Positions 3,001 through 60,732 of a stretch of DNA of 64,000 nt are shown in pieces. Position numbers and translations under genes: made by a program. Under the pieces are notes generated by a model. The model was not told the DNA's origin and did not search any database. It worked only from the letters and a program-made list of their open reading frames with translations. How positions within the stretch are numbered: the stretch's first letter is position 1; each line of letters begins with the position of its first letter. The stretch lies in contig CM075996.1 in NCBI GenBank assembly GCA_038087875.1, forward strand, positions 5,768,001-5,832,000, given 5' to 3'. This DNA is from Malacoraja senta (Eukaryota).

Positions 3001-6000
3001 ACTGAGGTGTCAGAAGATTTGGGAATTCATATAATTGACGATTTACAATTTTTTATGGATTACATCATTCCTAACATTGAACAAATATTTAATGATCAAA
3101 AGCTGGATGTCTTACGTTTCTTGTATAATATAATCTGCTGTTATAATACAGATTATGAAATGAAAAAAGAAAAAATTGTGTCTAATCTCAAAAGCATAAA
3201 ACTGATCAAAGCCAAGAATGGAATATTTCAAAAAGTGTCATATTTCTATGAGAAGAAAGAACCCTTATTTAAAATTATGATTACAGCAGAAAAGTTTGTT
3301 CCTGAGAGTTTTTTTAAAAGTATGGGTTGCTATTATGATGATTCCAATTTAATCAAATTGCTGAAGGATCTGGGAATTAAGCGCTCTGTTTCTTCAGATG
3401 ATTTTATCGCTTTTGCATTGCAAGTTTCAGAAGAGGTGAACATGCATGCTCCTTTGAAAGAACTAATTGAAAAAAGTGATGCTTTGCTCACATACTTCTG
3501 TAATGTAGAAGAGGAGAACCTTCAAAAGGATTTTTATGAAAAAGTGGCAGATATTAAATTTGTTTATCCACACAAAGTTCGAGAGTTTCTACGTAGCTTA
3601 CATCCACCTTATGCAGAAGGGAGGAGTTTTGTTCCATTGAAGAGCTCATTGGTGAAACAGCGGGAGGAAGACGAGGACTTGGTTTGGACTTCCATGCCTA
3701 TTTTACCATCAAAATGTGCACTGTCAAGAAATATGAGTAGGTTAAAAGCTGTTGGTGCTCTTTTTGTTCCTCCAGAAACAACAGTCATAGCAAACCTTAG
3801 GAAAATTTGCTTTGCTGCCTGTAAAAATCACAGTGCCTTAAAAACCAGATCCAAAGTGCTTCAGACTGCGTATAGCTTCCTTCAAAATCATTCATTTGAT
3901 GTGCTGTCTCTTGCTGATCTTCCAATTGTTCTTGTAGAAGAGGACACTCTGCTGATAAAAATCAGCCAGGTGGTGTTCTCATTACAAAATTATGATGAGT
4001 TTCATCCTTATTTATATCGGCTCCCTCCAGTGCTAGCTCCATACCATGAGTTCTTCCAGAAGTTGGGTGTTGCTCTGGAGCCATCAGCTTCTCATCTTGT
4101 TCAGATACTCATATCTCTTTATGAAGATTCCAGCAAAGTGATTAGCTTAAATCCAAACCAAATGATAACTGTGAAACGAACCTTGTATCATCTGTTTACA
4201 CTTTTGGAATCTAGAACAGAGGAACGGACAGTTGAAAAATTAAAGCCACTGCATCTCCCAGCAAGTGATGGTATTATGTACCCATCCAATACATTATGTT
4301 TCAATGATAGAATTAGTACAGGTTCCAGAATAGATGTCAGTGTGTTAAAAGGAAAGTTTAATTTTCTTCTCGATCTGGGTGAATGTCATTTGAGTTCTGA
4401 TCCTTACAAGCAGATAAATCTTTTACAATTTCTACCTGAAGAAATTCGTCCAAAGATGCTTTCACAGTTAACAGAGGAAATTCTCAATGAATCGGTTCTG
4501 TGTCTTTGTCCATATGGAAATGATTGCATGTTCAGGAATGATTTCTACAAGCTTCTTGTGTCCTCTAATTTTAGAGGTGGGTTAGTGAGCTTGTTAAAGG
4601 CTCAGTGCTGCGGAGAGCTGCCTGTGAGTGACATTCAGCGCGATTGTGAAAATGTATTTTCTAAAATACAAATTATTTGCTGCGAAAAACTGGAAACAAT
4701 TCTTTGCTTAGGGTCAGAACAGCTGATTAACACCAGCATCGAGAAACAAGTCTACACCAAGATAAGCAATACAGGTACTGGTGTGGTGTACCTAGAACAC
4801 AGAGATAATGTACCATTCAGTATGAGAACTGTCATCATACATTCTTTGGCGACTGAGCTCAATTCACTGTTGAAGAATGCCTTAAACAAAGATTCACTGT
4901 TAATTCTGGTGCTGATGCTCAGCTGTGAAAATCCACATGACATACAGAAAGTGTTGGAAGACAAAGGCATCCTCACTCGTAAGTTAAAAGTCCAGATGCC
5001 AACGAACCAGCCTAGTCCTGGAGATCCCATTCCAGAAGAACTGATTCACACATTGGAAATGGATATTGCACATAATTTCAAACCTGGTGAATATATAGCT
5101 TATAAGGACCCATCTGCAAATGATTATGTATATGCCATTTTTATTGAGTGTTTCAACACAGATAAGTTTACCAAAGATATAAGGATAGAAAAGTGTAAGA
5201 TAAAGATAGCTACAGATATCTTCATTACCGTCAACCATCTGGATTTGTACAAATTTGGTCAACATAAGATGCCCGAGGAAATATGCCAGAAAGCTGTTGT
5301 ATTGGATACATCAAAAGATAAACTGCAAACATCCAGCCAGAAATATGAGTCATTGGACAGCATTAAGAAAGAAATTCAGGAATATCTAAAGGAAGTTAGA
5401 AATCTCCCTAAGGATGAGAGACAGAAAGCAATTCGTCGCCTGTATCTGAAGTGGCATCCAGACAAAAACCCAAGCAATGTGGAAGTAACGACAAAGTTGT
5501 GTCACTTTATTCAAGAGAAAGTGAAGCAGCTGGACATAATCGGAGCGGAGAGTGGAAGCACCTCATCAAATTACAAAAGCTCCTTTTCCAGAAAAGAGGA
5601 AGATTTTTCTTCATTTTTCAATCAATGGAATAGTGAGGCGTCAAGACATAAGCAGAGACCACCACAGCAGAAAAAAAGTCAATCTGCCAGTGAATTCTGG
5701 TCATTCCCAAACAAAAATCAGCCTAATCCAGAAGAGGCTGAAAGATGGCTTAGACAAGCAAAATGTGATCTCCGAGCAGCTTTCAATGACCTGGGCTCTG
5801 CCGGCCAAGACTGTACTGCCACCGAATGGTTGTATTTTAAAATTCATCAAGCTGTTGAAAAAGCTTTAATTGCTGCAGAGTACAAGAAAAGCGGAAAATG
5901 TGTTAGTGACCAGAGCATCACCTTCCTTGCCAAACAGGTATCAAAGTATGGTGCAAAACTATCAGAGCTGGGGAGCTTGGTGAATAAACTCAAAGAACAT

Positions 6001-15886: not shown

Positions 15887-15936
15887 GTGAGGCATTTGGT
15901 TTAGAGTCATAGTGATACAGTTTGGAAACAGGCCCA

Positions 15937-16163
15937 ACTTGCCCACACCAGCCAACATGTCCCAGCTACATGAGACTTGCCCACACCGGGCAACATGTCC
16001 CAGCTACACGAGATTTGCCCACACCGGCCAACATGTCCCAGCTACACGAGATTTGCCCACACCAGCCAACATGTCCCAGCTACACGAGATTTGCCCACAC
16101 CGGCCAACATGTCCCAGCTACACGAGACTTGCCCACACCGGCCAACATGTCCCAGCTACACGA
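15937..16163. repeat. 39-bp tandem repeat (~6 copies) derived from a LINE 3' UTR
   Basis: Unit approximately TTGCCCACACCGGCCAACATGTCCCAGCTACACGAGA(C/T). It is contiguous with the LINE at 16165-16880. Confidence 0.9.
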
Positions 16164-16164
16164 G

Positions 16165-16880
16165 CCCCACCTGCCCACGTTTGGCCCATATCCCTCCAAA
16201 CCAGTCCAATCCATGTACCTGTCTAACGGTTTCTTAAATGTTGGGATAGTCCCTACCTCAACCACCTCCTCTGGCAGTTTGTTCCAGATGCCCACCACCC
16301 CTTGTGTGAAAAAGTTACCCTTCAGATTCCTATTAAATTTTTTCCCCTTCACCTTAATTCACCTACTCTGGGCAAGAGATTCTGTGCATCTACCCAATAT
16401 ATTCCTCATGATTTTATGCACCTCTATATGATCACCCCTCGTGCGCTCCAAGGAATAGAGACCCAGCCTACTCAACCTCTCCCTATAGCTCAGACCCTCT
16501 AATCCTGGCAACATCCTCATATATCTTCGCTGTACCCTTTCCAGCTTGACAATATCTTTCCTATAACATGGTGCCCAGAACTGAACACAATATTCTAAAT
16601 GCGGCCTCGCCAACGTCTTATACAACTGCAACACGACCTCCCAACTTCTGCACTCAATACTCTGACTGATGAAAGCCAATGTGCCAAAACCGTTTTTGAC
16701 CACCCTATCTACCTGCGACTCCACCTTCAACGAACCATGCACCTGCACTCCTAGATCCCTCTGCTCTATAACACTACCCAGAGCCCTAACATTTACTGTG
16801 CAGGTCCCTGCCAAAATGTAACACCTCACGTTTCTCTGTATTAAATTCCATCAACCATTCCTCAGCCCACCTGGCCAATC
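16165..16880 (-). mobile_element. CR1/HER1-like LINE 3' fragment
   Basis: ORF 16359-16829 contains [33 protein letters not shown], the CR1 ORF2 C-terminus. Confidence 0.88.
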
Positions 16881-20065: not shown

Positions 20066-21798
20066 AGCCACCCGAAAACGTTACCCAACTTTAGATTGTT
20101 TTGCAATGTGGAGCCTCTTGCAGGCTGTTGAAGCAAACAGTAGGTGCAGTGGGCTGAGGCCCAGACTCATGGTCAGACACAGGCTCAGACCCAGGGTCAG
20201 GCTTAGGCCCAGGCTTAGGCCCAGGCCCAGGCACAGGGTCAGGCCCAAACTCACATAAAGGACCAGTATCTGCAGACCCAGCTGTAGACTGAGGGCCTCA
20301 GCCCACGTGAAGGTTCAGGCCCACGTCACCTCCTCAGCAATGTCCACATGGAAAGGGGGCAGTGGGAAGAAATAGGAGGCAGCACAGTGGCGCAGCGGGT
20401 AGAGCTGTTGCCTCACGGTGACAAGAGACCCTGACAGGTTTGATCCTGACCGCGGGTGCTGTCTTGTGTGGGGTTTGCACGTTCTTGTGTGGGGTTTGCA
20501 CGTTCTTCTGCTGGTGCACTGGTTTCCTCCCACATCGTACAGAAAATAGGAACTAGTTTATCAGCCTCTGCAAATTGCCCCTTTCGCCTGCTGCAAAACT
20601 GCGGAGAGTTGACGGGGAGAGGAAGGGGAAAGAATAAAAACTGGGATTAAAGCTGGTTCAGTGTAAAGGGGTGGTTAGTGCTCAGCAGAGGATCTTTAGC
20701 CTTTAGAGATACAGCGTGGAAACAGGCCCTTCGGCCCACCGAGACTGTGCTGAGCAGCAATCACACCCCGTACACTAGCCCTATTCTACACACAAGGGGC
20801 AATTTACAGAAGCCAATTAACCAACAAACCTGCATGGCTTTGGAGTGCGGGAGGAAACCGGAGCACCCGGAGAAAACCCACGCGGTCACAGGGAGAACGT
20901 ACAAACTCCGTACAGACAGCGCCCGTAGTCAGGATCGAACCGGCATCTCTACCGCTGTAAGGCAGCAGCTCTACTGCTGCACCGCCGTCCCCCGCCTCAG
21001 TGGGAGCCACAGGGCCTGTTTCCCCATCTCTCCGTGAACATGAGAAATGGGAGGAAGAGATGGAAAAGTTGGGATTGGGGGAGGCAGTGGACTGGAGATG
21101 CAAGGAATCTCCCGGATGATCAGGAAGTCCAGGAAGCAGAGAGGAAAACATACTGTCCGGGTCAAACATGTGACCAACACGTCGTTGAAAGTGGCGTCAC
21201 GGGTATACAGGGTGGTCAAAAAGGCTTTTGGCACCTTGGCCTTCATCAGTCTGAGCATTGAATATAGAAGTTGGGAGGTCATGTTGCAGTTGGAAAAGAG
21301 GTTGGTGAGGCCGCATTTATAGTATTGCGTTCAGTCAGGGGCTCCACGTTATAGGAAAGATGTTGTCAAGCTGGGAAGGGGTGCAGAGAAGATTTACGAG
21401 CATGTTGCCAGGACTCGAGGGCCTAAGCTGCAGGGAGAGGTTGGACAGGCTTGGACTCTATTCCTTGGAGCGTAGGAGGATGAGGGGTGATCTTATAAGA
21501 GGTGCATAAAATCATGAGAGGAATAGATCAGGTAGATGCCCAGAGTAGGGGAATTGAGAATCATAGTTTTAAGGTGAGGGAGGAAAGATTTAATAAGAAT
21601 GTGAGGGTTAACTCTTTCACGCAAAGGGTGGTTGGTGTATGGAACGGGCTGCCAAACGCAGGTTGGCGGGACTAGTGTAGATGGGACATGTTGGCCGGTG
21701 TGGCCAAGTTGGGCCGAAGGGCCTGTTTCCACGCTGTGAGGCTCTGGAACACCACATTATACAGGGGTGAGTGAATCCATAAGAACAATGGGCAGTAG

Positions 21799-21836
21799 CA
21801 CACACACACACACACACACACAGACATACACAGACA

Positions 21837-21878
<42 letters not shown>

Positions 21879-21896
21879 GACACAGACAGACAGACA

Positions 21897-21959
<63 letters not shown>

Positions 21960-21962
21960 ACA

Positions 21963-22010
<48 letters not shown>

Positions 22011-22096
22011 GACAGACACACACACACACACAGACACACACACACACACACATACACACAGACAGACGCAGACACACACACACACACACACAGACA

Positions 22097-22194
<98 letters not shown>

Positions 22195-22246
22195 AACACA
22201 GACAGACACACAGACACACACACACACACACACAGACATACACACA

Positions 22247-22278
<32 letters not shown>

Positions 22279-22349
22279 GACAGACGCAGATACACACAGA
22301 CACGCACACACACAGACACGCACACACACACACACACACACACGACACA
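21799..22349. repeat. Compound (CA)n/(CAGA)n microsatellite
   Basis: Directly visible. Confidence 0.97.
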
Positions 22350-26026: not shown

Positions 26027-26233
26027 CTGCATTGTAGAAGGAGCTCTGGGTTAGTCTGGGTTGTGCTCTGATCGCCATCTTCAACCTCCAATCCTTGCTC
26101 CTCTTCTGCAAGCTTACTTTAGTTAGGAGTTAGCATGGAGACAGGCCCTTCGACCCATCGATTGCCGGTACACACTAGTTCTATGTTTGCCCACTTGTTT
26201 GCATCCACTCCCTACACACTAGGGCCAATTAAT

Positions 26234-26287
26234 GGGGTGGGAGATTGCAACCTTCACGTGGTCCGCCCTGTTTCGACGAATGCAATC
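26234..26287 (+). ncRNA. Minimal HDV/CPEB3-like self-cleaving ribozyme (predicted)
   Basis: P1 GGGGUGG/CCGCCCU, P2 GAUUGCA/UGCAAUC, P3 ACC/GGU, L3 UUCACGU, J1/4 GU, J4/2 C-GAA with the candidate catalytic C at 26277. Confidence 0.8.
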
Positions 26288-26375
26288 AACCTGGCGTGCA
26301 CGATCAAATAAGATCAAATAGAACAAGTTGTCCTACAACTTTAGGCTGTGCACGCCATACGCAAGAAGAAGATGA
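26234..26375 (+). mobile_element. ~140-bp ribozyme-headed retroposon (Ingi/Vingi-like non-autonomous SINE), copy 1
   Basis: 13-bp TSD AGGGCCAATTAAT / AGGGCCAACTAAT, GCCATACGCAAGAAGAAG tail, and a second copy at 40435 with the same 5' end. Confidence 0.85.
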
Positions 26376-28630
26376 AGGGCCAACTAATGTGCAAACCCGC
26401 AAGTCATTGGGATGTGGGAGGAAACCGTGAGCACCCGGTGGATACCCACGCGGTCACAGGGAGAAGGTGCAAACTCCACATAGACAGCACCCGAGATCAG
26501 GATCGGACCTGGGTCTGCGAGGAAGCAGCTCGACCCGCTGCGCCACTGTTCCGTGCTGAGCATCCACACCTTGGCCTCCGTCTGCCTGTTCCTCTGGGTT
26601 TCTGAAGCCGTCGCTCCCTCTCCCTGCAAGCCCTGCTCTCTGGTAAAGCTGGTTAGCACGCAACAAAAGCTTTTCACTGTACCTCGGTAGAGGTGACGAT
26701 AAACGATCCTGAAACTGAGCAACGCCCTTCTCCTCAACGGGCAGGGCCCTGTCACGTTCAGCCTCCCTGTACTCTGCTGCCTCCTGCAACCAGGTTCAGG
26801 GCCAGGTCCCGACCAGGAACAAGTTCACAAGTTTTAGGGGTAGAATTAGGCCATTCGGCCCATCGAGTCTACGCCAGTCAATCATGGCTGATCTCCGCCT
26901 CCTAATCCCAGTTTCCCGCCTTCTCTCCATAACTCGACACCCATTCTAATCAAGAATTTGTCTATCTCTGCTTTAAAAATATCCACAGACTTGGCCTCCG
27001 CAGCCCCCCTGTGGCAAAGAGTTCCACAGATTCACCACCCTCTGACTAAAGAAGTTCCTTCTCACCTCTTTTCTAAAAATGCGTCCTTTAATTCTGAGGC
27101 TCTGACCTCTGGTCCGAGACTCTCCCACCAGTGGAAACATCCTTTCCACATCCACTCTATCTATGCCTTTCATTATTCTGTAAGTTTCAATGATGTCCCC
27201 CCCTCAACCATCTAAACTCCAGTGAGTTGAGGCCCAGTGCTGTCAAACGCTCACCATCTGCTAACCCACTCATTCCTGGAATCATTCGTAAACCTCCTCT
27301 GGACCCTCTCCAGAGCCAGCACATCCTTCCTCAGATATGGGCATCAAATTTGCTCACAGTACTCCACATGCAGCCTGACCAGGTATAACTGCTAGCATTG
27401 AATTTGCCTTCATTACTACCGATTCGGCTTGCAGATGAACTTTGTGGGATCCAAGCGCCCATCTCAAGGGCAAAGCCTTACCGAATTACTGTTGGACAGT
27501 GGTGCCTTTTGGCCATATCCATCAGGCGAGAATGAAATGCTCGTAGAAGGAGAAAGAGGTGCAGCGCACGCATAGGTCTTGAACCTGGTGAGACGCAGGA
27601 GGAGCCCGGCCTGGACTCACCCCACAGAGCCCAGTCCCTCCACGCACTAGAGTCTCCCAACCCCTGCAGTGTGGTTACTAAGATGGCTGATCCGTGGGCG
27701 GTTGCTGCTGGGACGTAAGTCGGGGCCTGATCAACCCCGGCTGGGTCGCCTGGCGAGGGTGTCTGATGTTGTGAGACCCGAAACACCCGATGACCCCCCA
27801 GGTCACATCACTGAGGATGCGTCCCAGCCCATCTAGAAGTTTTATCTTTTCACACACGACACCCGGGAAAGTCCAACCGACAATCGGCAGATATAACTAA
27901 ATCTGTCCACACAATGGGTGGCATGGTTGAGCAGCTGGTAGAGCTGCTGCCTCACAGTGCCAGAGACCCGGGTTTCATCCGACTTCAGGTGCGGTCTGTG
28001 TGGAGTTTGCACGCTCTCCTTGTGACTGCGTGGCTTTCCTCCAGGCGCTCCGGTTTCCTCCCACACTCCAAACCCGCGCAGGCTTGTAGGTTAATTGGCT
28101 TCTGTACATTGCCCATAATGTGTAGGGTGCAAGACTGGGATAACAGAACTAATGCGCGGGTCATCGATGGTCGGTGCCGAATCGATTGGCCGAAGGGCCT
28201 GTTTCCACGCTGAATCTCTAAAGTAAAACATATATCCTGAAACGGAGCAATGAAATGTTACATTCCAAAGATGTGCGGGATTGTCGGTTACTTGACCCTG
28301 GTCTGTAGACAGCGGATGCGAGAGTGAGATAGTGTAGTGTGATCGGGTGATCAATGGTCGGCATGGACTCAGTGGGCTGAAGGGCCTGTTTCCATGCTGT
28401 ATCTCCAAACTTGGTATTGCCAGTCTGCGCGCTACGCAACTTTTTTTCCCCATCCCTGGTTTCTCTTCCACTGTGTCTCCCTCTTCCAGTCCTCCTCCCT
28501 CCCACCCCTGGCTCCTCTGCAATGGACGTGACACTGTCTGTAGTCCTTGCCATCTCCACGGCACCTTGGACGCTCGAGCGACCGTGTCCTTGCCCTCGTT
28601 AGATTTTCCTGGCATGGTGTTTATACTCAC

Positions 28631-40434: not shown

Positions 40435-40488
40435 GGGGTGGAAGATTGCAACCTTCACGTGGTCCACCCTGTTTCGACTAATGCAATC
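40435..40488 (+). ncRNA. Minimal HDV/CPEB3-like self-cleaving ribozyme (predicted), copy 2
   Basis: Same fold as copy 1, with P1 3' strand CCACCCU and J4/2 C-UAA (C at 40478). Confidence 0.8.
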
Positions 40489-40573
40489 AACTCGACGTGC
40501 ACAAACGCAAGATGAAATAGAACAAGTTGTCCTACAACTTTAGGCTGTGCACGCCACACGAAAGAAGAAGAAG
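40435..40573 (+). mobile_element. ~140-bp ribozyme-headed retroposon, copy 2
   Basis: 11-bp TSD ACGACCATACA (40424-40434 and 40574-40584); (GAA)n tail. Confidence 0.85.
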
Positions 40574-42550
40574 ACGACCATACAGCCGATGGTCGTGAGA
40601 GGTCTCCAAAGAGTCGTGGCGCCTTTCTGGTCGCCGCTGAATTTTCAACACGTTGAAAATTTCGGTGACCTGTGACGTGTGCCGGCAGTCGCCTATAAAG
40701 GTCGCGTAAGTGGGACAGGCCCTTTAGAATCATGGCAATGCGTGGCGTCGTGTGTCTATGCGAGGGTCAGCCAGAGTACTCCCCCCCCCACCCTCCAGCG
40801 GGATCGATTGAGGACCAGCCTGTCCAAGCTTACCATCAATGACCTATCTATACTAAGGGAGTCAAAGGGAAGTCCAGAACTAGGGGTCACAGTTTAAGGA
40901 TAAGAGGGAAGACTTTTAGGACCGAGATGAGGAAATCATTTTTTTACACAGAGAGTGGTGAATCTGTGGAATTCTCTGCCACAGAAGGTAGTTGAGGCCA
41001 GTTCATTGGCTATATTTAAGAGGGAGTTAGATGTGGCCCTTGTGGCTAAAGGGATCAGGGGGTATGGAGAGAAGGCAGGGATGGGATACTGAGTTGGATG
41101 ATCAGCCATGATCATATCACCATGATCATATCAAATGGCGGTGCAGGCTCGAAGGGCCGAATGGCCTACTCCTGCACCTATTTTCTATGTTTCTATGTTA
41201 CGGGGAGAAGGCAGGAGAATGGGGTGAAGAGAGGGAACACCGATCAGCCACGATAGTAACATAGAAAATAGGTGCAGGAGTAGGCCATTCGGCCCTTCAA
41301 GCCAGCACCGCCATTCAATATGATCATGGCCCATCATCCAAAATCAATACCCCGTTCCTGCTTTCTCCCCATATCCCTTGATTCCGTTAACCCTAAGAGC
41401 TAAATCTAACTCTCTCTTGAATACATCAATGATCGAATGGCAAAGCAGACTCGATGGGCTGAATGGCCTAATTCTGCTCCCTTGTCTTGTGGTCTGGGAA
41501 AGCACTTGGACCCTGGTCTTCTCTGCCCTGCTGATTCACGTGCTTGTCTAAACAACGAGAGTCCCTGCCTCCACCGACCACGCAGGCTGCGTTCCAGATT
41601 CCAACTACCTTCAGGTTAAACGTCCCTCGGATGCCCTCTAAACCCCTTCTAACCTTATCCTGAACCCATGGCCCCCTAGTGTTAGGGTGGAGGCACAGCA
41701 CCAGGATCCGGGTTCGTTCTTGGCGACTGGTGCTCTCCGTGTGGAGTTTGCACGTTCTCCCCGTGACCGAGTGGGTTTTCTCCGGCTGCTCCGGGTTTCC
41801 TTCCCACATCCCAAAGGCGTGCAGCTTTGTAAGTTAATCGGCTTCTGCAAAATTGCCCCCAGTTTGTAGGGAGTGGATGGGACATTGTGATAACATAGAA
41901 CTAGTGTACTATGATCACTGGGAGGTGACAATGAGACACCACGGGCACCGAGCTACATTCAGTTGGGATTAATGGAACTGCCTTGAGCTCTCTTATGTCT
42001 CAGTGATCTTGGGTTCCAACTTTTGGAACTCAAACTGATGACGCTGAAGGCTTTGCAGCATAGATTGAATGATTCAGCTCACCAGTTAATTCTATGCAGG
42101 AAGGAACTGCAGATGCTGGTTTAAACCGAAGATGGACACAACAAGCTGAAGCAACTCGGCGGGTCAGACAGCATCTCCGGAGAAACGGTCATAAGTGACA
42201 GCAGCAGAATTAGGCCATTCGGCCCATCAAGTCTACTCCGCCATTCAATCATGGCTGATCTATCTCTCCCTCCTAACCCCATTCTCCTTCCTTCTTCTCA
42301 TAACCCCCGACACCCGTACTAATCATAAGGAATAGGTCTTGACCTAAAATGTCACCTATTCCTCTCCTGAGATGCTGTCTGACCCGCTGAGTTACTGCAG
42401 CGTTTTGTGTCTATCTCAGGTTTAAACCAGCATCTGCAGCTCCTTCCTACATAGAATTAACTGGTTGGCTGAATCATTCAATCTATGCTACATGCTGCTA
42501 TCATTCTGCTTTGCTATTTAGTAGATGCCAATATTTGATGTACTGTACAG

Positions 42551-43193
42551 GTGGTGAGTGAGTGGGTGAGTGAGTGTGTGGGTGTGTGGGTGTGTGAGTG
42601 TGTGGGTGTGTGAGTGTGTGAGTGTGTGAGTGTGTGGGTGTGTGAGTGTGTGAGTGTGTGAGTGTGTGGGTGTGTGAGTGTGTGAGTGTGTGGGTGTGTG
42701 AGTGGGTGAGTGGGTGGGTGGGTGAGTGGGTGGGTGTGTGGGTGGGTGTGTGAGTGGGTGTGAGTGGGTGAGTGGGTGGGTGTGTGAGTGGGTGAGTGGG
42801 TGGGTGGGTGGGTGGGTGAGTGAGTGTGTGAGTGAGTGAGTGAGTGTGTGAGTGTGTGAGTGAGTGTGTGAGTGAGTGTGTGAGTGTGTGAGTGAGTGTG
42901 TGAGTGAGTGAGTGAGTGTGTGAGTGAGTGTGTGAGTGTGTGTGTGAGTGTGTGAGTGAGTGAGTGAGTGTGTGAGTGTGTGAGTGAGTGTGTGAGTGTG
43001 TGTGTGAGTGTGTGAGTGAGTGAGTGAGTGAGTGTGTGAGTGAGTGAGTGAGTGTGTGAGTGAGTGAGTGAGTGTGTGAGTGTGTGTGTGAGTGTGTGAG
43101 TGAGTGAGTGAGTGAGTGTGTGAGTGAGTGTGTGAGTGTGTGTGTGAGTGTGTGAGTGTGTGAGTGAGTGTGAGTGAGTGAGTGAGTGAGTGT
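42551..43193. repeat. (GT)/(GAGT)/(GGGT) compound microsatellite
   Basis: Directly visible. Confidence 0.96.
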
Positions 43194-58123: not shown

Positions 58124-58450
58124 ATCTATCTACTGTATCTGTTGTTCAAGGTGTGGACTCTTGTACATCGGCGAGATCAAATGTAGACTGGGCAGTCGTT
58201 TCGCTGAACACCTTCTCTCAGTCCACCTGGACCTACCTGATCTCCCGGTTGCCAAACACTTTAATTCCCATTCCCATTCCCATTCCCACACTGATCTTTC
58301 TTTCCTGGGCCTCCTCCATTGTCAGAGTGAGGCCAAATGCAAATTGGAGGAGCAGCATCTCATATTCTGCTTGGGCAGCTTACAACCCAGCGGTATGAAT
58401 ATTGATTTCTCTAACTTCAAGTAACCCTTGCATCCCCTCTCTCTCCATCC
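58124..58450 (+). mobile_element. Penelope-like element GIY-YIG endonuclease remnant
   Basis: IYCICCSRCGLLYIGEIKCRLGSRFAEHL..PVAKHFNS..EQHLIFCLGSLQPSGMN. Confidence 0.85.
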
Positions 58451-58481
58451 CAAGTTATTTATGAACCTGAAGTATCTCCAG

Positions 58482-59240
58482 TTGTCAGCAGCTGACTCCA
58501 TCCTTGGTCTATCTCATGAGACAGCAGGGTTGTCCATTGGGTGAGATCTCCATGGTATTCCAGCCCTGTCAGCTGCTGGTTCCATTCTTGGTCTATCCCT
58601 TTGGGGCAGAAGGGTTGTCCATTGGGTGACATCTCCATGGTATCCTAGCACTGTCAGCTGCTGGTTCCATTCTTGGTCTATCCCTTTGGGGCAGAAGGGT
58701 TGTCCATTGGGTGAGATCTCCATGGTATCCCAGCACTGTCAGCTGCTGCTTCCATTCTTGGTCTATCCCTTTGGGGCAGAAGGGTTGTCCATTGGGTGAG
58801 ATCTCCATGGTATCCCAGCACTGTCAGCTGCTGCTTCCATTCTTGGTCTATCCCTTTGGGGCAGAAGGGTTGTCCATTGGGTGAGATCTCCATGGTATCC
58901 CAGCACTGTCAGTTGCTGGTTCCATTCTTGGTCTATCCCTTTGGGGCAGAAGGGTTGTCCATTGGGTGAGATCTCCATAATATCCCAGCACTGTCAGCTA
59001 CTGGTTCCATTCTTGGTCTATCCCTTTGGGGTAGAAGGGTTGTCCATTGGGTGAGATCTCCATAATATCCCAGCACTGTCAGCTGCTGCTTCCATTCTTG
59101 GTCTATCCCTTTGGGGCAGAAGGGTTGTCCATTGAGTGACATCTCCATGGTATCCCAGCACTGTCAGCTGCTGGTTCCATTCTTGGTCTATCCCTTTGGG
59201 GTAGAAGGGTTGTCCATTGGGTGAGATCTCCATGGTATCC
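58482..59240. repeat. 85-bp minisatellite (~9 copies)
   Basis: Unit CCATTGGGTGAGATCTCCATGGTATCCCAGCACTGTCAGCTGCTGGTTCCATTCTTGGTCTATCCCTTTGGGGCAGAAGGGTTGT; the ORF track repeats every 85 bp. Confidence 0.95.
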
Positions 59241-59276
59241 CCCAGCATCAGACCCTCCTCCCCGCTGACGTCAGGA

Positions 59277-59450
59277 CGTCCGACGCGCTGAGGTCATGGC
59301 GCCGGCAGCGTCCGACGAGCTGAGGTCATGGCGCCAGCAGCGTCCGACGCGCTGAGGTCATGGCGCCGGCAGCGTCCGACGCGCTGAGGTCATGGCGCCG
59401 GCAGCGTCCGACGCGCTGAGGTCATGGCGCCGGCTGCGTCAGACGCTGAG
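59277..59450. repeat. 32-bp CpG-rich tandem repeat (~5.4 copies) in the NUCB1 promoter region
   Basis: Unit CGTCCGACGCGCTGAGGTCATGGCGCCGGCAG starting at 59277, 59309, 59341, 59373 and 59405; preceded by TGACGTCA at 59266. Confidence 0.93.
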
Positions 59451-59577: not shown

Positions 59578-59765
59578 GTAAGCCGGAGCCCAGGGCAGAT
59601 CCGCGGACTGGCCGCTCCCCCCCCCCCCCCTTTGGCGGGAGGGCTTGGGGTAACCCGGGTGCGACGGGCCGAGTGGTCCAGCGGCCTCCCATAGACTGAG
59701 CTGGGGCAGATCAGGGCCGACTGTTGGCCCAGGGCAGCGGGGAGGGGCACTTCCACTTTCATTTT

Positions 59766-60443
59766 CATTGCTCCCCTCTCCTGGCGGCCACTTGCTCCCC
59801 TGTCTGGTGGCCACTTGCTCCCCTGTCTGGTGGCCACTTGCTCCCCTGTCTGGTGGCCACTTGCTCCCCTGTCTGGTGGCCACTTGCTCCCCTATCCTGG
59901 CGGCCACTTGCTCCCCTGTCTGGTGGCCACTTGCTCCCCTCTCCTGGCGGCCACTTGCTCCCCTGTCTGGTGGCCACTTGCTCCCCTGTCTGGTGGCCAC
60001 TTGCTCCCCTGTCTGGTGGCCACTTGCTCCCCTATCCTGGCGGCCACTTGCTCCCCTGTCTGGTGGCCACTTGCTCCCCTGTCTGGTAGCCACTTGCTCC
60101 CCTATCTGGTGGCCACTTGCTCCCCTGTCTGGTGGCCACTTGCTCCCCTGTCTGGTGGCCACTTGCTCCCCTATCCTGGCGGCCACTTGCTCCCCTGTCT
60201 GGTGGCCACTTGCTCCCCTGTCTGGTGGCCACTTGCTCCCCTGTCTGGTAGCCACTTGCTCCCCTGTCTGGTGGCCACTTGCTCCCCTGTCTGGTAGCCA
60301 CTTGCTCCCCTGTCTGGCGACCACTTGCTCCCCTGTCTGGTGGCCACTTGCTCCCCTGTCTGGTGGCCACAGCTCCCCTGTCTAGTGGCCACAGCTCCCC
60401 TGTTTGGTGGCCACTTGCTCCCCTGTCCTGGAGGCCACAGCTC
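59766..60443. repeat. 23-bp minisatellite (~29 copies) in the putative NUCB1 intron 1
   Basis: Unit CCACTTGCTCCCCTGTCTGGTGG, with variants such as ..CCTATCCTGGCGG. Confidence 0.95.
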
Positions 60444-60732
60444 CCGACAAGGGGACTATCCTGTTGCCACTCCTCAAATCTGACAACTCAGAATAAGCTG
60501 CTGTGTGTCCCAACCTGCAGAATTTGGTTAAATAATTGTTGCATTTGACTATCTGTAGAGGGGGGGAGGAGGAGGCGGAGGAGGAGGAGGGGGGGGGGGT
60601 TATTAGTTGAAATTGGGATAACAGGAAACTAGTGTGAATGGGAAGTAGTCAGAGTGAACTTGTGGGCTGCTGTATGCTTAAATTAAACTAAATCCATTCA
60701 TCTTTTATACTAGGTAACCATTTGCAGAACTA

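Follow-up and report, generated by a model that had tools for sequence, protein, structure and literature searches.

Short non-autonomous retroelements with a ribozyme at their 5' end have been described in trypanosomes, where NARTc and RIME are short derivatives of L1Tc and ingi that keep the ends of a LINE from the clade sister to the one considered here, carry an HDV-like ribozyme at nt 1 and are mobilized in trans (PMC4035085; PMC5786205). The HDV-like heads of R2, L1Tc and RTE are reported to free the element from a longer transcript (PMC6765202). The heads of NARTc and SIDER are described as cleaving in vitro, and trypanosome heads that are well folded as being sometimes inactive, with the suggestion that downstream sequence could be inhibitory (PMC4035085). 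HDV-like ribozymes that lack helix P4 also cleave in vitro; these minimal forms were recovered from metagenomes with their origin and function left open, nearly 99% of them were later placed in Caudoviricetes phages, many beside tRNA genes, and the eukaryotes searched for them were human, mouse and protists (PMC10879173).

Here we describe two copies of a short element whose first 54 nt can be drawn as a P4-less HDV-like ribozyme. Both lie in the window, by which we mean the whole 64-kb stretch of DNA that was analysed. We think it quite probable that a Vingi-like LINE gave rise to this non-autonomous element by internal deletion, and that the element would be released by its own ribozyme and inserted by the LINE protein. 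Its parts and surroundings are as follows.

26111..26560, no strand assigned: host repeat carrying the insertion, with an empty (uninterrupted) paralogue at 41729-41907; we take it to resemble V-SINE/HE1 on the minus strand
26221..26233, plus strand: left target-site duplication (TSD), 13 bp (14 counting the following G)
26234..26375, plus strand: whole non-autonomous element, 142 nt, the best 40 copies being 97-100% identical
26234..26287, plus strand: P4-less HDV-like fold, with a predicted cut 5' of G26234 and a presumed catalytic C26277
26280..26282, plus strand: AUG within J4/2-P2, in frame with the ORF in LINE copy L101 (281 codons open); putative start codon
26288..26314, plus strand: remainder of the LINE-derived 5' segment (ending near nt 81), from comparison with the LINE
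26292..26357, plus strand: predicted 3' domain, a 10-bp stem (26292-301/26348-357) around a 7-bp hairpin (26325-31/26335-41)
26315..26327, plus strand: 13-nt filler at the deletion joint, which partly repeats the preceding bases and is absent from the LINE
26328..26362, plus strand: part derived from the LINE 3' end, with the last ORF codons, the stop (26342-44) and a short 3' UTR
26363..26375, plus strand: (AAG)n tail, read from the sequence
26376..26388, plus strand: right TSD, one mismatch to the left TSD
40435..40573, plus strand: second copy, of an older subfamily, with an 11-bp TSD (40424-34/40574-84) and with A8, A32 and U45 as in the LINE or LINE variants

The head (26234-26287) has the nested double pseudoknot of HDV-like ribozymes, with P1, P2 and P3 in order and 17 of 17 pairs. 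P1 joins 26234-40 to 26263-69, with wobbles at G1.U36 and U5.G32; P2 joins 26243-49 to 26281-87 and is separated from P1 by a J1/2 of GA; P3 is ACC/GGU and L3 is UUCACGU. The partners of P1.1 are C26255 and G26270 (a single pair), UUUCGA lies between G26270 and C26277, and J4/2 is CGAA. All core bases of the HDV-like class are present (U..C..G in L3, a G after P1, a C first in J4/2 and then N-A-A), and the C and the AA of J4/2 are invariant in 11 related heads. P1 and C44 are 7 nt apart without a P4 helix, at most one U-A pair being possible around UUCG, which places the head among the minimal HDV-like forms. A scan for this fold in fixed register along both strands of the window returned two places only, 26234 and 40435, and none on the minus strand. 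The preliminary description had assigned the helices and core bases by position, and every one of them was verified where it had been put.

Covariance models for described ribozymes recognize the head faintly. With a 1.5-kb query around the element, Rfam returned two unrelated weak matches and nothing relevant; with a 77-nt query it returned two HDV-type matches far under threshold, one of them exactly at 26234-26287. The head scores 14.4 bits on HDV-F-prausnitzii (RF02682; threshold 44) and 12.4 bits on the CPEB3 ribozyme (RF00622; threshold 35). The Rfam comparison that had been suggested as a check thus returns HDV and CPEB3 models below threshold, and the likeness to the CPEB3 core that had been pointed out holds for L3, J1/4 and CGAA, but does not make the head a member of the Rfam CPEB3 family. 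Minimum-free-energy folding of the 54-mer gives no support (z +0.92) by a method that cannot form pseudoknots, and its structure is the nested P1+P3 part of the fold.

The element is dispersed. A 22-nt core pattern matched 7,551 times in the 1.94-Gb assembly, whose repeats resemble those of a cartilaginous fish, and its reversed control 0 times. To avoid selecting full-length copies by construction, 60 loci were picked by a pattern in the 3' end; 49 of these extend to nt 1-8 (43 of them to nt 1), four are LINE 3' ends (three by score and L232 by eye) and seven are truncated. The prediction of a family with a uniform 5' end is therefore borne out, both by the number of core matches and by the 43 of 60 loci that start at nt 1. 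This uniformity should not be given much weight, however, since copies of an element of only 142 nt would be full length by whatever means the 5' end arose. Among 122 distinct full-length copies, 110 have a TSD, most often of 11-12 bp, and in 12 none was found. The end of the TSD falls at nt 1 in 50 copies, at the next base in 27, at the base before in 12 and elsewhere in 21, so that it lies within one base of G1 in 89 of the 122. In the window copy the predicted cut was said to coincide exactly with the TSD boundary; the TSD does abut G26234, but a G follows both TSD copies and the coincidence is exact only within one base. TSDs together with a tail of short repeats, (AAG)n, are hallmarks of target-primed reverse transcription. 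The same 122 copies show a weak preference for T at -1, -13 and -14 (70, 59 and 61 copies).

The element also occurs in 24 public runs from 10 studies and 7 organisms, one run being on record as RNA. In the four of these 24 runs that were examined, as contigs, 40, 25, 1 and 219 contigs depart from the reference at the head boundary and continue into unrelated flanks. One contig of 276 nt (public run X11, record 1) has two tandem heads before one tail.

No A or B box was matched in the element by four regular expressions, and it contains no TTTT. Rfam matched no small-RNA-derived head and the head is LINE-derived, which sets the element apart from tRNA-, 5S- and 7SL-headed SINEs and agrees with the earlier observation that a tRNA head and Pol III boxes are missing.

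The source of both ends was found in the same genome. A search for the element tail preceded by other bases gave 25 places, five of them closing an ORF that has a Cys/His C-terminus. Among 20 LINE copies compared, L101 and L116 have both the P4-less head and the tail of the element, with the head lying 3.08 and 2.8 kb upstream of the tail, L115 is a deletion form of 1.6 kb, and three copies have an inverted head. An inverted 5' part, as in twin priming, was noted in LINE copies L099, L102, L105, L107 and L114. Aligned with the LINE, the element consists of LINE nt 1-81, the 13-nt filler and the last ~45 nt of the LINE. It is a short, internally deleted, non-autonomous LINE, with ends common to the coding LINE and the middle missing. 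It had been proposed as a free-standing SINE; it instead joins the two ends of a Vingi-like LINE that begins with this head. Its proposed mobilization in trans gains a candidate partner, since a LINE with this head and tail has been identified; insertion by the protein of that LINE would follow from the common tail. The filler was considered as a coding remnant and rejected, the LINE having different bases there.

The partner LINE is ~3.08 kb long and has a single ORF with APE and then RT; RNase H is absent from four ORF pieces. An intact relative of 1,019 aa, 71% identical over a 442-aa query, has the same make-up of APE and RT without RNase H. This single-ORF architecture without RNase H is the one given for Vingi (PMC13708176), and in order of domains and length (about 3 kb) the partner LINE agrees with it. 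RTE was considered as the partner and rejected, the relatives being APE+RT proteins of ~1,000 aa with HDV heads like the printed Vingi 5' ends. In an RT tree that held no named Vingi proteins and an unnamed outgroup not typable as Ingi, the partner LINE lies in a 100/100 clade with L167, a relative from a metagenome; the CR1-like RTs of the window proved too divergent for use as an outgroup, and L182 was left out for low coverage. None of the 55 partner-family matches listed is stop-free, and because every longer one among them carries stops, the driver LINE may be extinct or missing from the assembly.

The LINE-type head pattern had 215 matches, and of 30 such loci that were examined, 12 are short elements with other joints, two run into the ORF and 16 were untypable. 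Because other joints occur in loci picked by their head and in public contigs, internal deletion must have taken place more than once. At least three other short deletion derivatives were seen (L283, L284, L290, L292-L295, L299, L302, L303, L309 and L311). A short ATACG motif just before the tail is present in the element and in the distant relatives L122, L142, L149, L178 and L179, and is a candidate recognition signal. The predicted 3' domain is strong in the window copy (z about -4.3) and weak in two older-type copies (z -1.25 and 0.29). In the commonest young subfamily, changes at nt 59, 61 and 98 give a longer 5'-3' stem (10 bp) and a longer inner hairpin (7 bp).

HDV-like heads are clade-wide among these LINE relatives. 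In metagenomes, 74 loci encode relatives, and the test was confined to the 28 in which the match begins among the first ~100 residues; L167 and L168, both included, have identical sequences, and three loci have little flank. Just upstream of the ORF, an HDV descriptor was found in 8 of these 28 foreign relatives in its strict form and in 11 in its relaxed form, and in 0 of 28 for each of the reverse-complement, reversed and ORF-internal controls. When T was required instead of the catalytic C, the relaxed descriptor matched three of the 28, all of them folds already counted and now read one base further on; neither A nor G gave any match. Two-sided changes occur in 14 of 17 pairs across eight foreign heads, a count that is partly circular because the rows were chosen for pairing. 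A covariance model made from those eight foreign heads only returned the two window copies as the top two of 36 matches, with exact boundaries (40435-40488, 30.7 bits; 26234-26287, 25.0 bits); the next match (21.5 bits) is a tandem repeat lacking P3, a small margin, and the E-values are rough. Tandem arrays in the window lie at 59735-60453, 58432-59326, 15901-16202, 21677-22300 and 42466-43000, with units of 23, 85, 38 and 8-14 nt, and the 23-nt-unit array supplies the best false matches of the ribozyme model.

Ribozyme model R1 missed three heads found by the descriptor (L118, L121 and L130) and added two (L134 and L174). Three other Vingi-like families in the same genome also begin with HDV-like heads, all with P4. 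Copies L313, L314, L323 and L325 belong to two Vingi-like families that have P4-containing heads and different tails; L313 and L314 were matched by model R1, yet Rfam gave no ribozyme in L312-L315. In the stretches examined, no head was found in L312, L315 or L320, the last of which (G000:C4794) represents yet another family, with 986 stop-free codons and an AAG-like tail. All relatives that have a head keep P4, which is missing only in the partner family; no independent second P4-less lineage was seen among them.

Variation within the family bears on whether the head acts as RNA. The four common head variants are all unpaired or pair-preserving (nt 8 in J1/2, nt 32 changing U.G to U-A, nt 42 in a loop, and nt 45). 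At C44-N45, CG is found in 3,229 copies, CT in 1,789, CA in 538 and TG in 275. C44T is thus seen 275 times vs 538 for G45A, whereas a control CpG in the 3' end gives 610 vs 579 (Fisher p 8e-15), and three CpGs outside the head give 20 TG vs 20 CA in 83 sampled copies. The deficit of TG is unexpected, because CpG decay should yield both products about equally. The simplest reading would be that G45A copies were recopied and C44T copies were not; one amplified G45A subfamily or sequence context could contribute to the skew. All pairs and core bases are retained in 18 of 50 sampled copies, as expected under decay after insertion.

We propose that a copy of the element would be transcribed as part of a longer, host read-through RNA, that its head would fold as the P4-less nested double pseudoknot and cut 5' of G1 with C44 as the catalytic base, and that the LINE protein, with its APE endonuclease and RT, would bind the 3' end and insert the RNA by target-primed reverse transcription. 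As no part of the ribozyme lies 5' of the cut, it would be passed on to each daughter copy, and many genomic copies could therefore be sources without a promoter. HDV-like ribozymes have a reported link to translation start. The head of the LINE would probably frame its translation start as well, L101 having an in-frame AUG there.

Some of this evidence can be read otherwise. It is possible, though in our judgment rather unlikely, that the head is both a ribozyme and an internal promoter, contained in these 54-80 nt like Pr77 of L1Tc, with cleavage only trimming the transcript start and host read-through unneeded. Pr77 of the sister clade does both (PMC3383444; PMC8256844), Kojima argues that Pol II transcribes bipartite LINEs, driven by the 5' end of the LINE (PMC5786205), and 7,551 copies are many for an element without a promoter; the common variants, however, follow the RNA fold, for which a DNA promoter has no need, and such a constraint is compatible with a second role. 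We consider it improbable that the ribozyme became inactive or very slow when P4 was lost, in which case the fold would be a relic, or a compact module at the 5' end that protects the RNA or binds protein, and transcription start, either by Pol II or by Pol III from degenerate boxes, would set the 5' end. No relative with a head has lost P4; the R2 ribozyme fold has been described as protective against 5' exonucleases (PMC13708176), and Pol III could read through an element that contains no TTTT. Neither an A nor a B box was matched, though, and the LINE with the same head does have TTTT at about nt 87. Moreover, C44 is kept while its neighbour is G, T or A in thousands of copies, and C44T is under-represented.

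That the fold arose by chance, or is a CPEB3-related ribozyme with a regulatory role in the host at this one locus, we regard as barely credible. The bases of L3 and J1/4 match the CPEB3 consensus, but 0 of 2,000,000 base shuffles of the 54-mer gave all 17 pairs in register, there are thousands of dispersed copies with TSDs, and the window copy interrupts another repeat whose paralogue is empty. Release of a deleted Vingi-like LINE by its own head remains the reading that we prefer.

The survey of related heads also gave a lead on the CPEB3 ribozyme itself. The head of the Vingi-like LINE at L167:3617-3690 (identical to L168:2199-2272) scores 55.6 bits on the Rfam model of the mammalian CPEB3 ribozyme (threshold 35); this LINE has a 14-bp TSD at 3602 and 6779, which ends at the G run of P1, and an (ATC)n tail. 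A second Vingi-like family of the same genome as the window (L318, L319, L321, L322 and L324, which are five of the eight copies examined from its other families) has CPEB3-like heads of 40.7-64.2 bits. Two copies with such heads have stop-free frames of about 1,010 codons, and the elements with CPEB3-like heads group on a single supported branch (98/97), to which the partner LINE does not belong. In L318:3316-3500 and L319:3369-3503 (minus strand), tandem units of ~26 nt cover P2, P3 and L3, perhaps through recurrent template jumping at the 5' end. For Vingi-2_Gav, Vingi-4_Crp and Vingi-1_BF, the 5' ends as printed read by eye like the CPEB3 consensus and the L167 head, P4 stem included, as do a stretch of Vingi-2_SPur and the alligator SINE body with respect to the CPEB3 consensus (PMC5786205, supplement); CPEB3 is not named in that paper.

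Since stem sequences vary freely among related heads, such close identity to CPEB3 suggests descent. A Vingi relic is present in the human genome (PMC5753468), and the domestication of conserved vertebrate ribozymes from mobile elements is in print as a general idea (PMC7761336). The ancestry of the CPEB3 ribozyme has been traced to the placental-marsupial split, in a report that makes no mention of transposons (PMC8233481), and the literature searched held neither Vingi as a source of CPEB3 nor a Vingi sub-lineage with heads passing the Rfam CPEB3 threshold. Our hypothesis, from sequence comparison, is that the mammalian CPEB3 ribozyme may have a Vingi origin. More broadly, we lean, if only slightly, toward a scheme in which the Vingi clade begins with an HDV-like ribozyme, one lineage independently lost P4 and spread an active 54-nt ribozyme to thousands of animal sites, and another, with stop-free ORFs in this genome, was the source of the domesticated CPEB3 ribozyme.

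If this holds, minimal HDV-like ribozymes gain a eukaryotic home and a clear job, and the element would be the smallest ribozyme-headed retroposon found described in the literature searched. Its copies, several thousand in number, would amount to a natural mutational library of minimal HDV-like ribozymes, in which the read-out is which variants were recopied. Self-cleavage at the 5' end would be extended to Vingi, which is now used for RNA-only gene insertion with native UTRs (PMC13708176), and a self-cutting 5' end would affect template design. The CPEB3 ribozyme, in turn, is given a specific and testable origin.

It remains to set the element beside the systems already described. In the full-text literature searched, with Repbase, Dfam and patents outside that scope, we found no P4-less head in an animal retroposon and no tie between Vingi and a ribozyme or between Vingi and CPEB3. 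Mammalian CPEB3 (RF00622) is alike in L3, in the single-pair P1.1 and in CGAA, and differs in the sequences of P1, P2 and P3 and in having the P4 that is missing here. Minimal HDV-like and theta ribozymes have the same HDV fold without P4 and a catalytic C first in J4/2 (PMC10879173); theta ribozymes, however, belong to phage genomes and cut at the 3' end of a tRNA, whereas the present head belongs to a dispersed animal retroposon with varied flanks and no tRNA, and is not one of them. Among retroposons, the family Vingi-1_EE and the Vingi parts of SINE2-1_ACar and SINE2-1_AMi likewise arose by internal deletion of a ~3.1-kb single-ORF LINE without RNase H (PMC5786205; PMC13708176). An R2 SIDE also combines a ribozyme head with the 3' end of its parent (PMC3414825), but it is specific for the rDNA site, with a long ribozyme and another class of endonuclease, in contrast to the dispersed insertions with a weak T preference found here. 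NARTc and RIME are close in plan; their 77-nt head contains P4 and a promoter and their parent has RNase H, whereas here the head is 54 nt long, P4-less and in an animal host. Ribozyme-headed deletion derivatives are thus already known from NARTc and R2 SIDE, and it is the P4-less head and the copy number that are unusual in this element.
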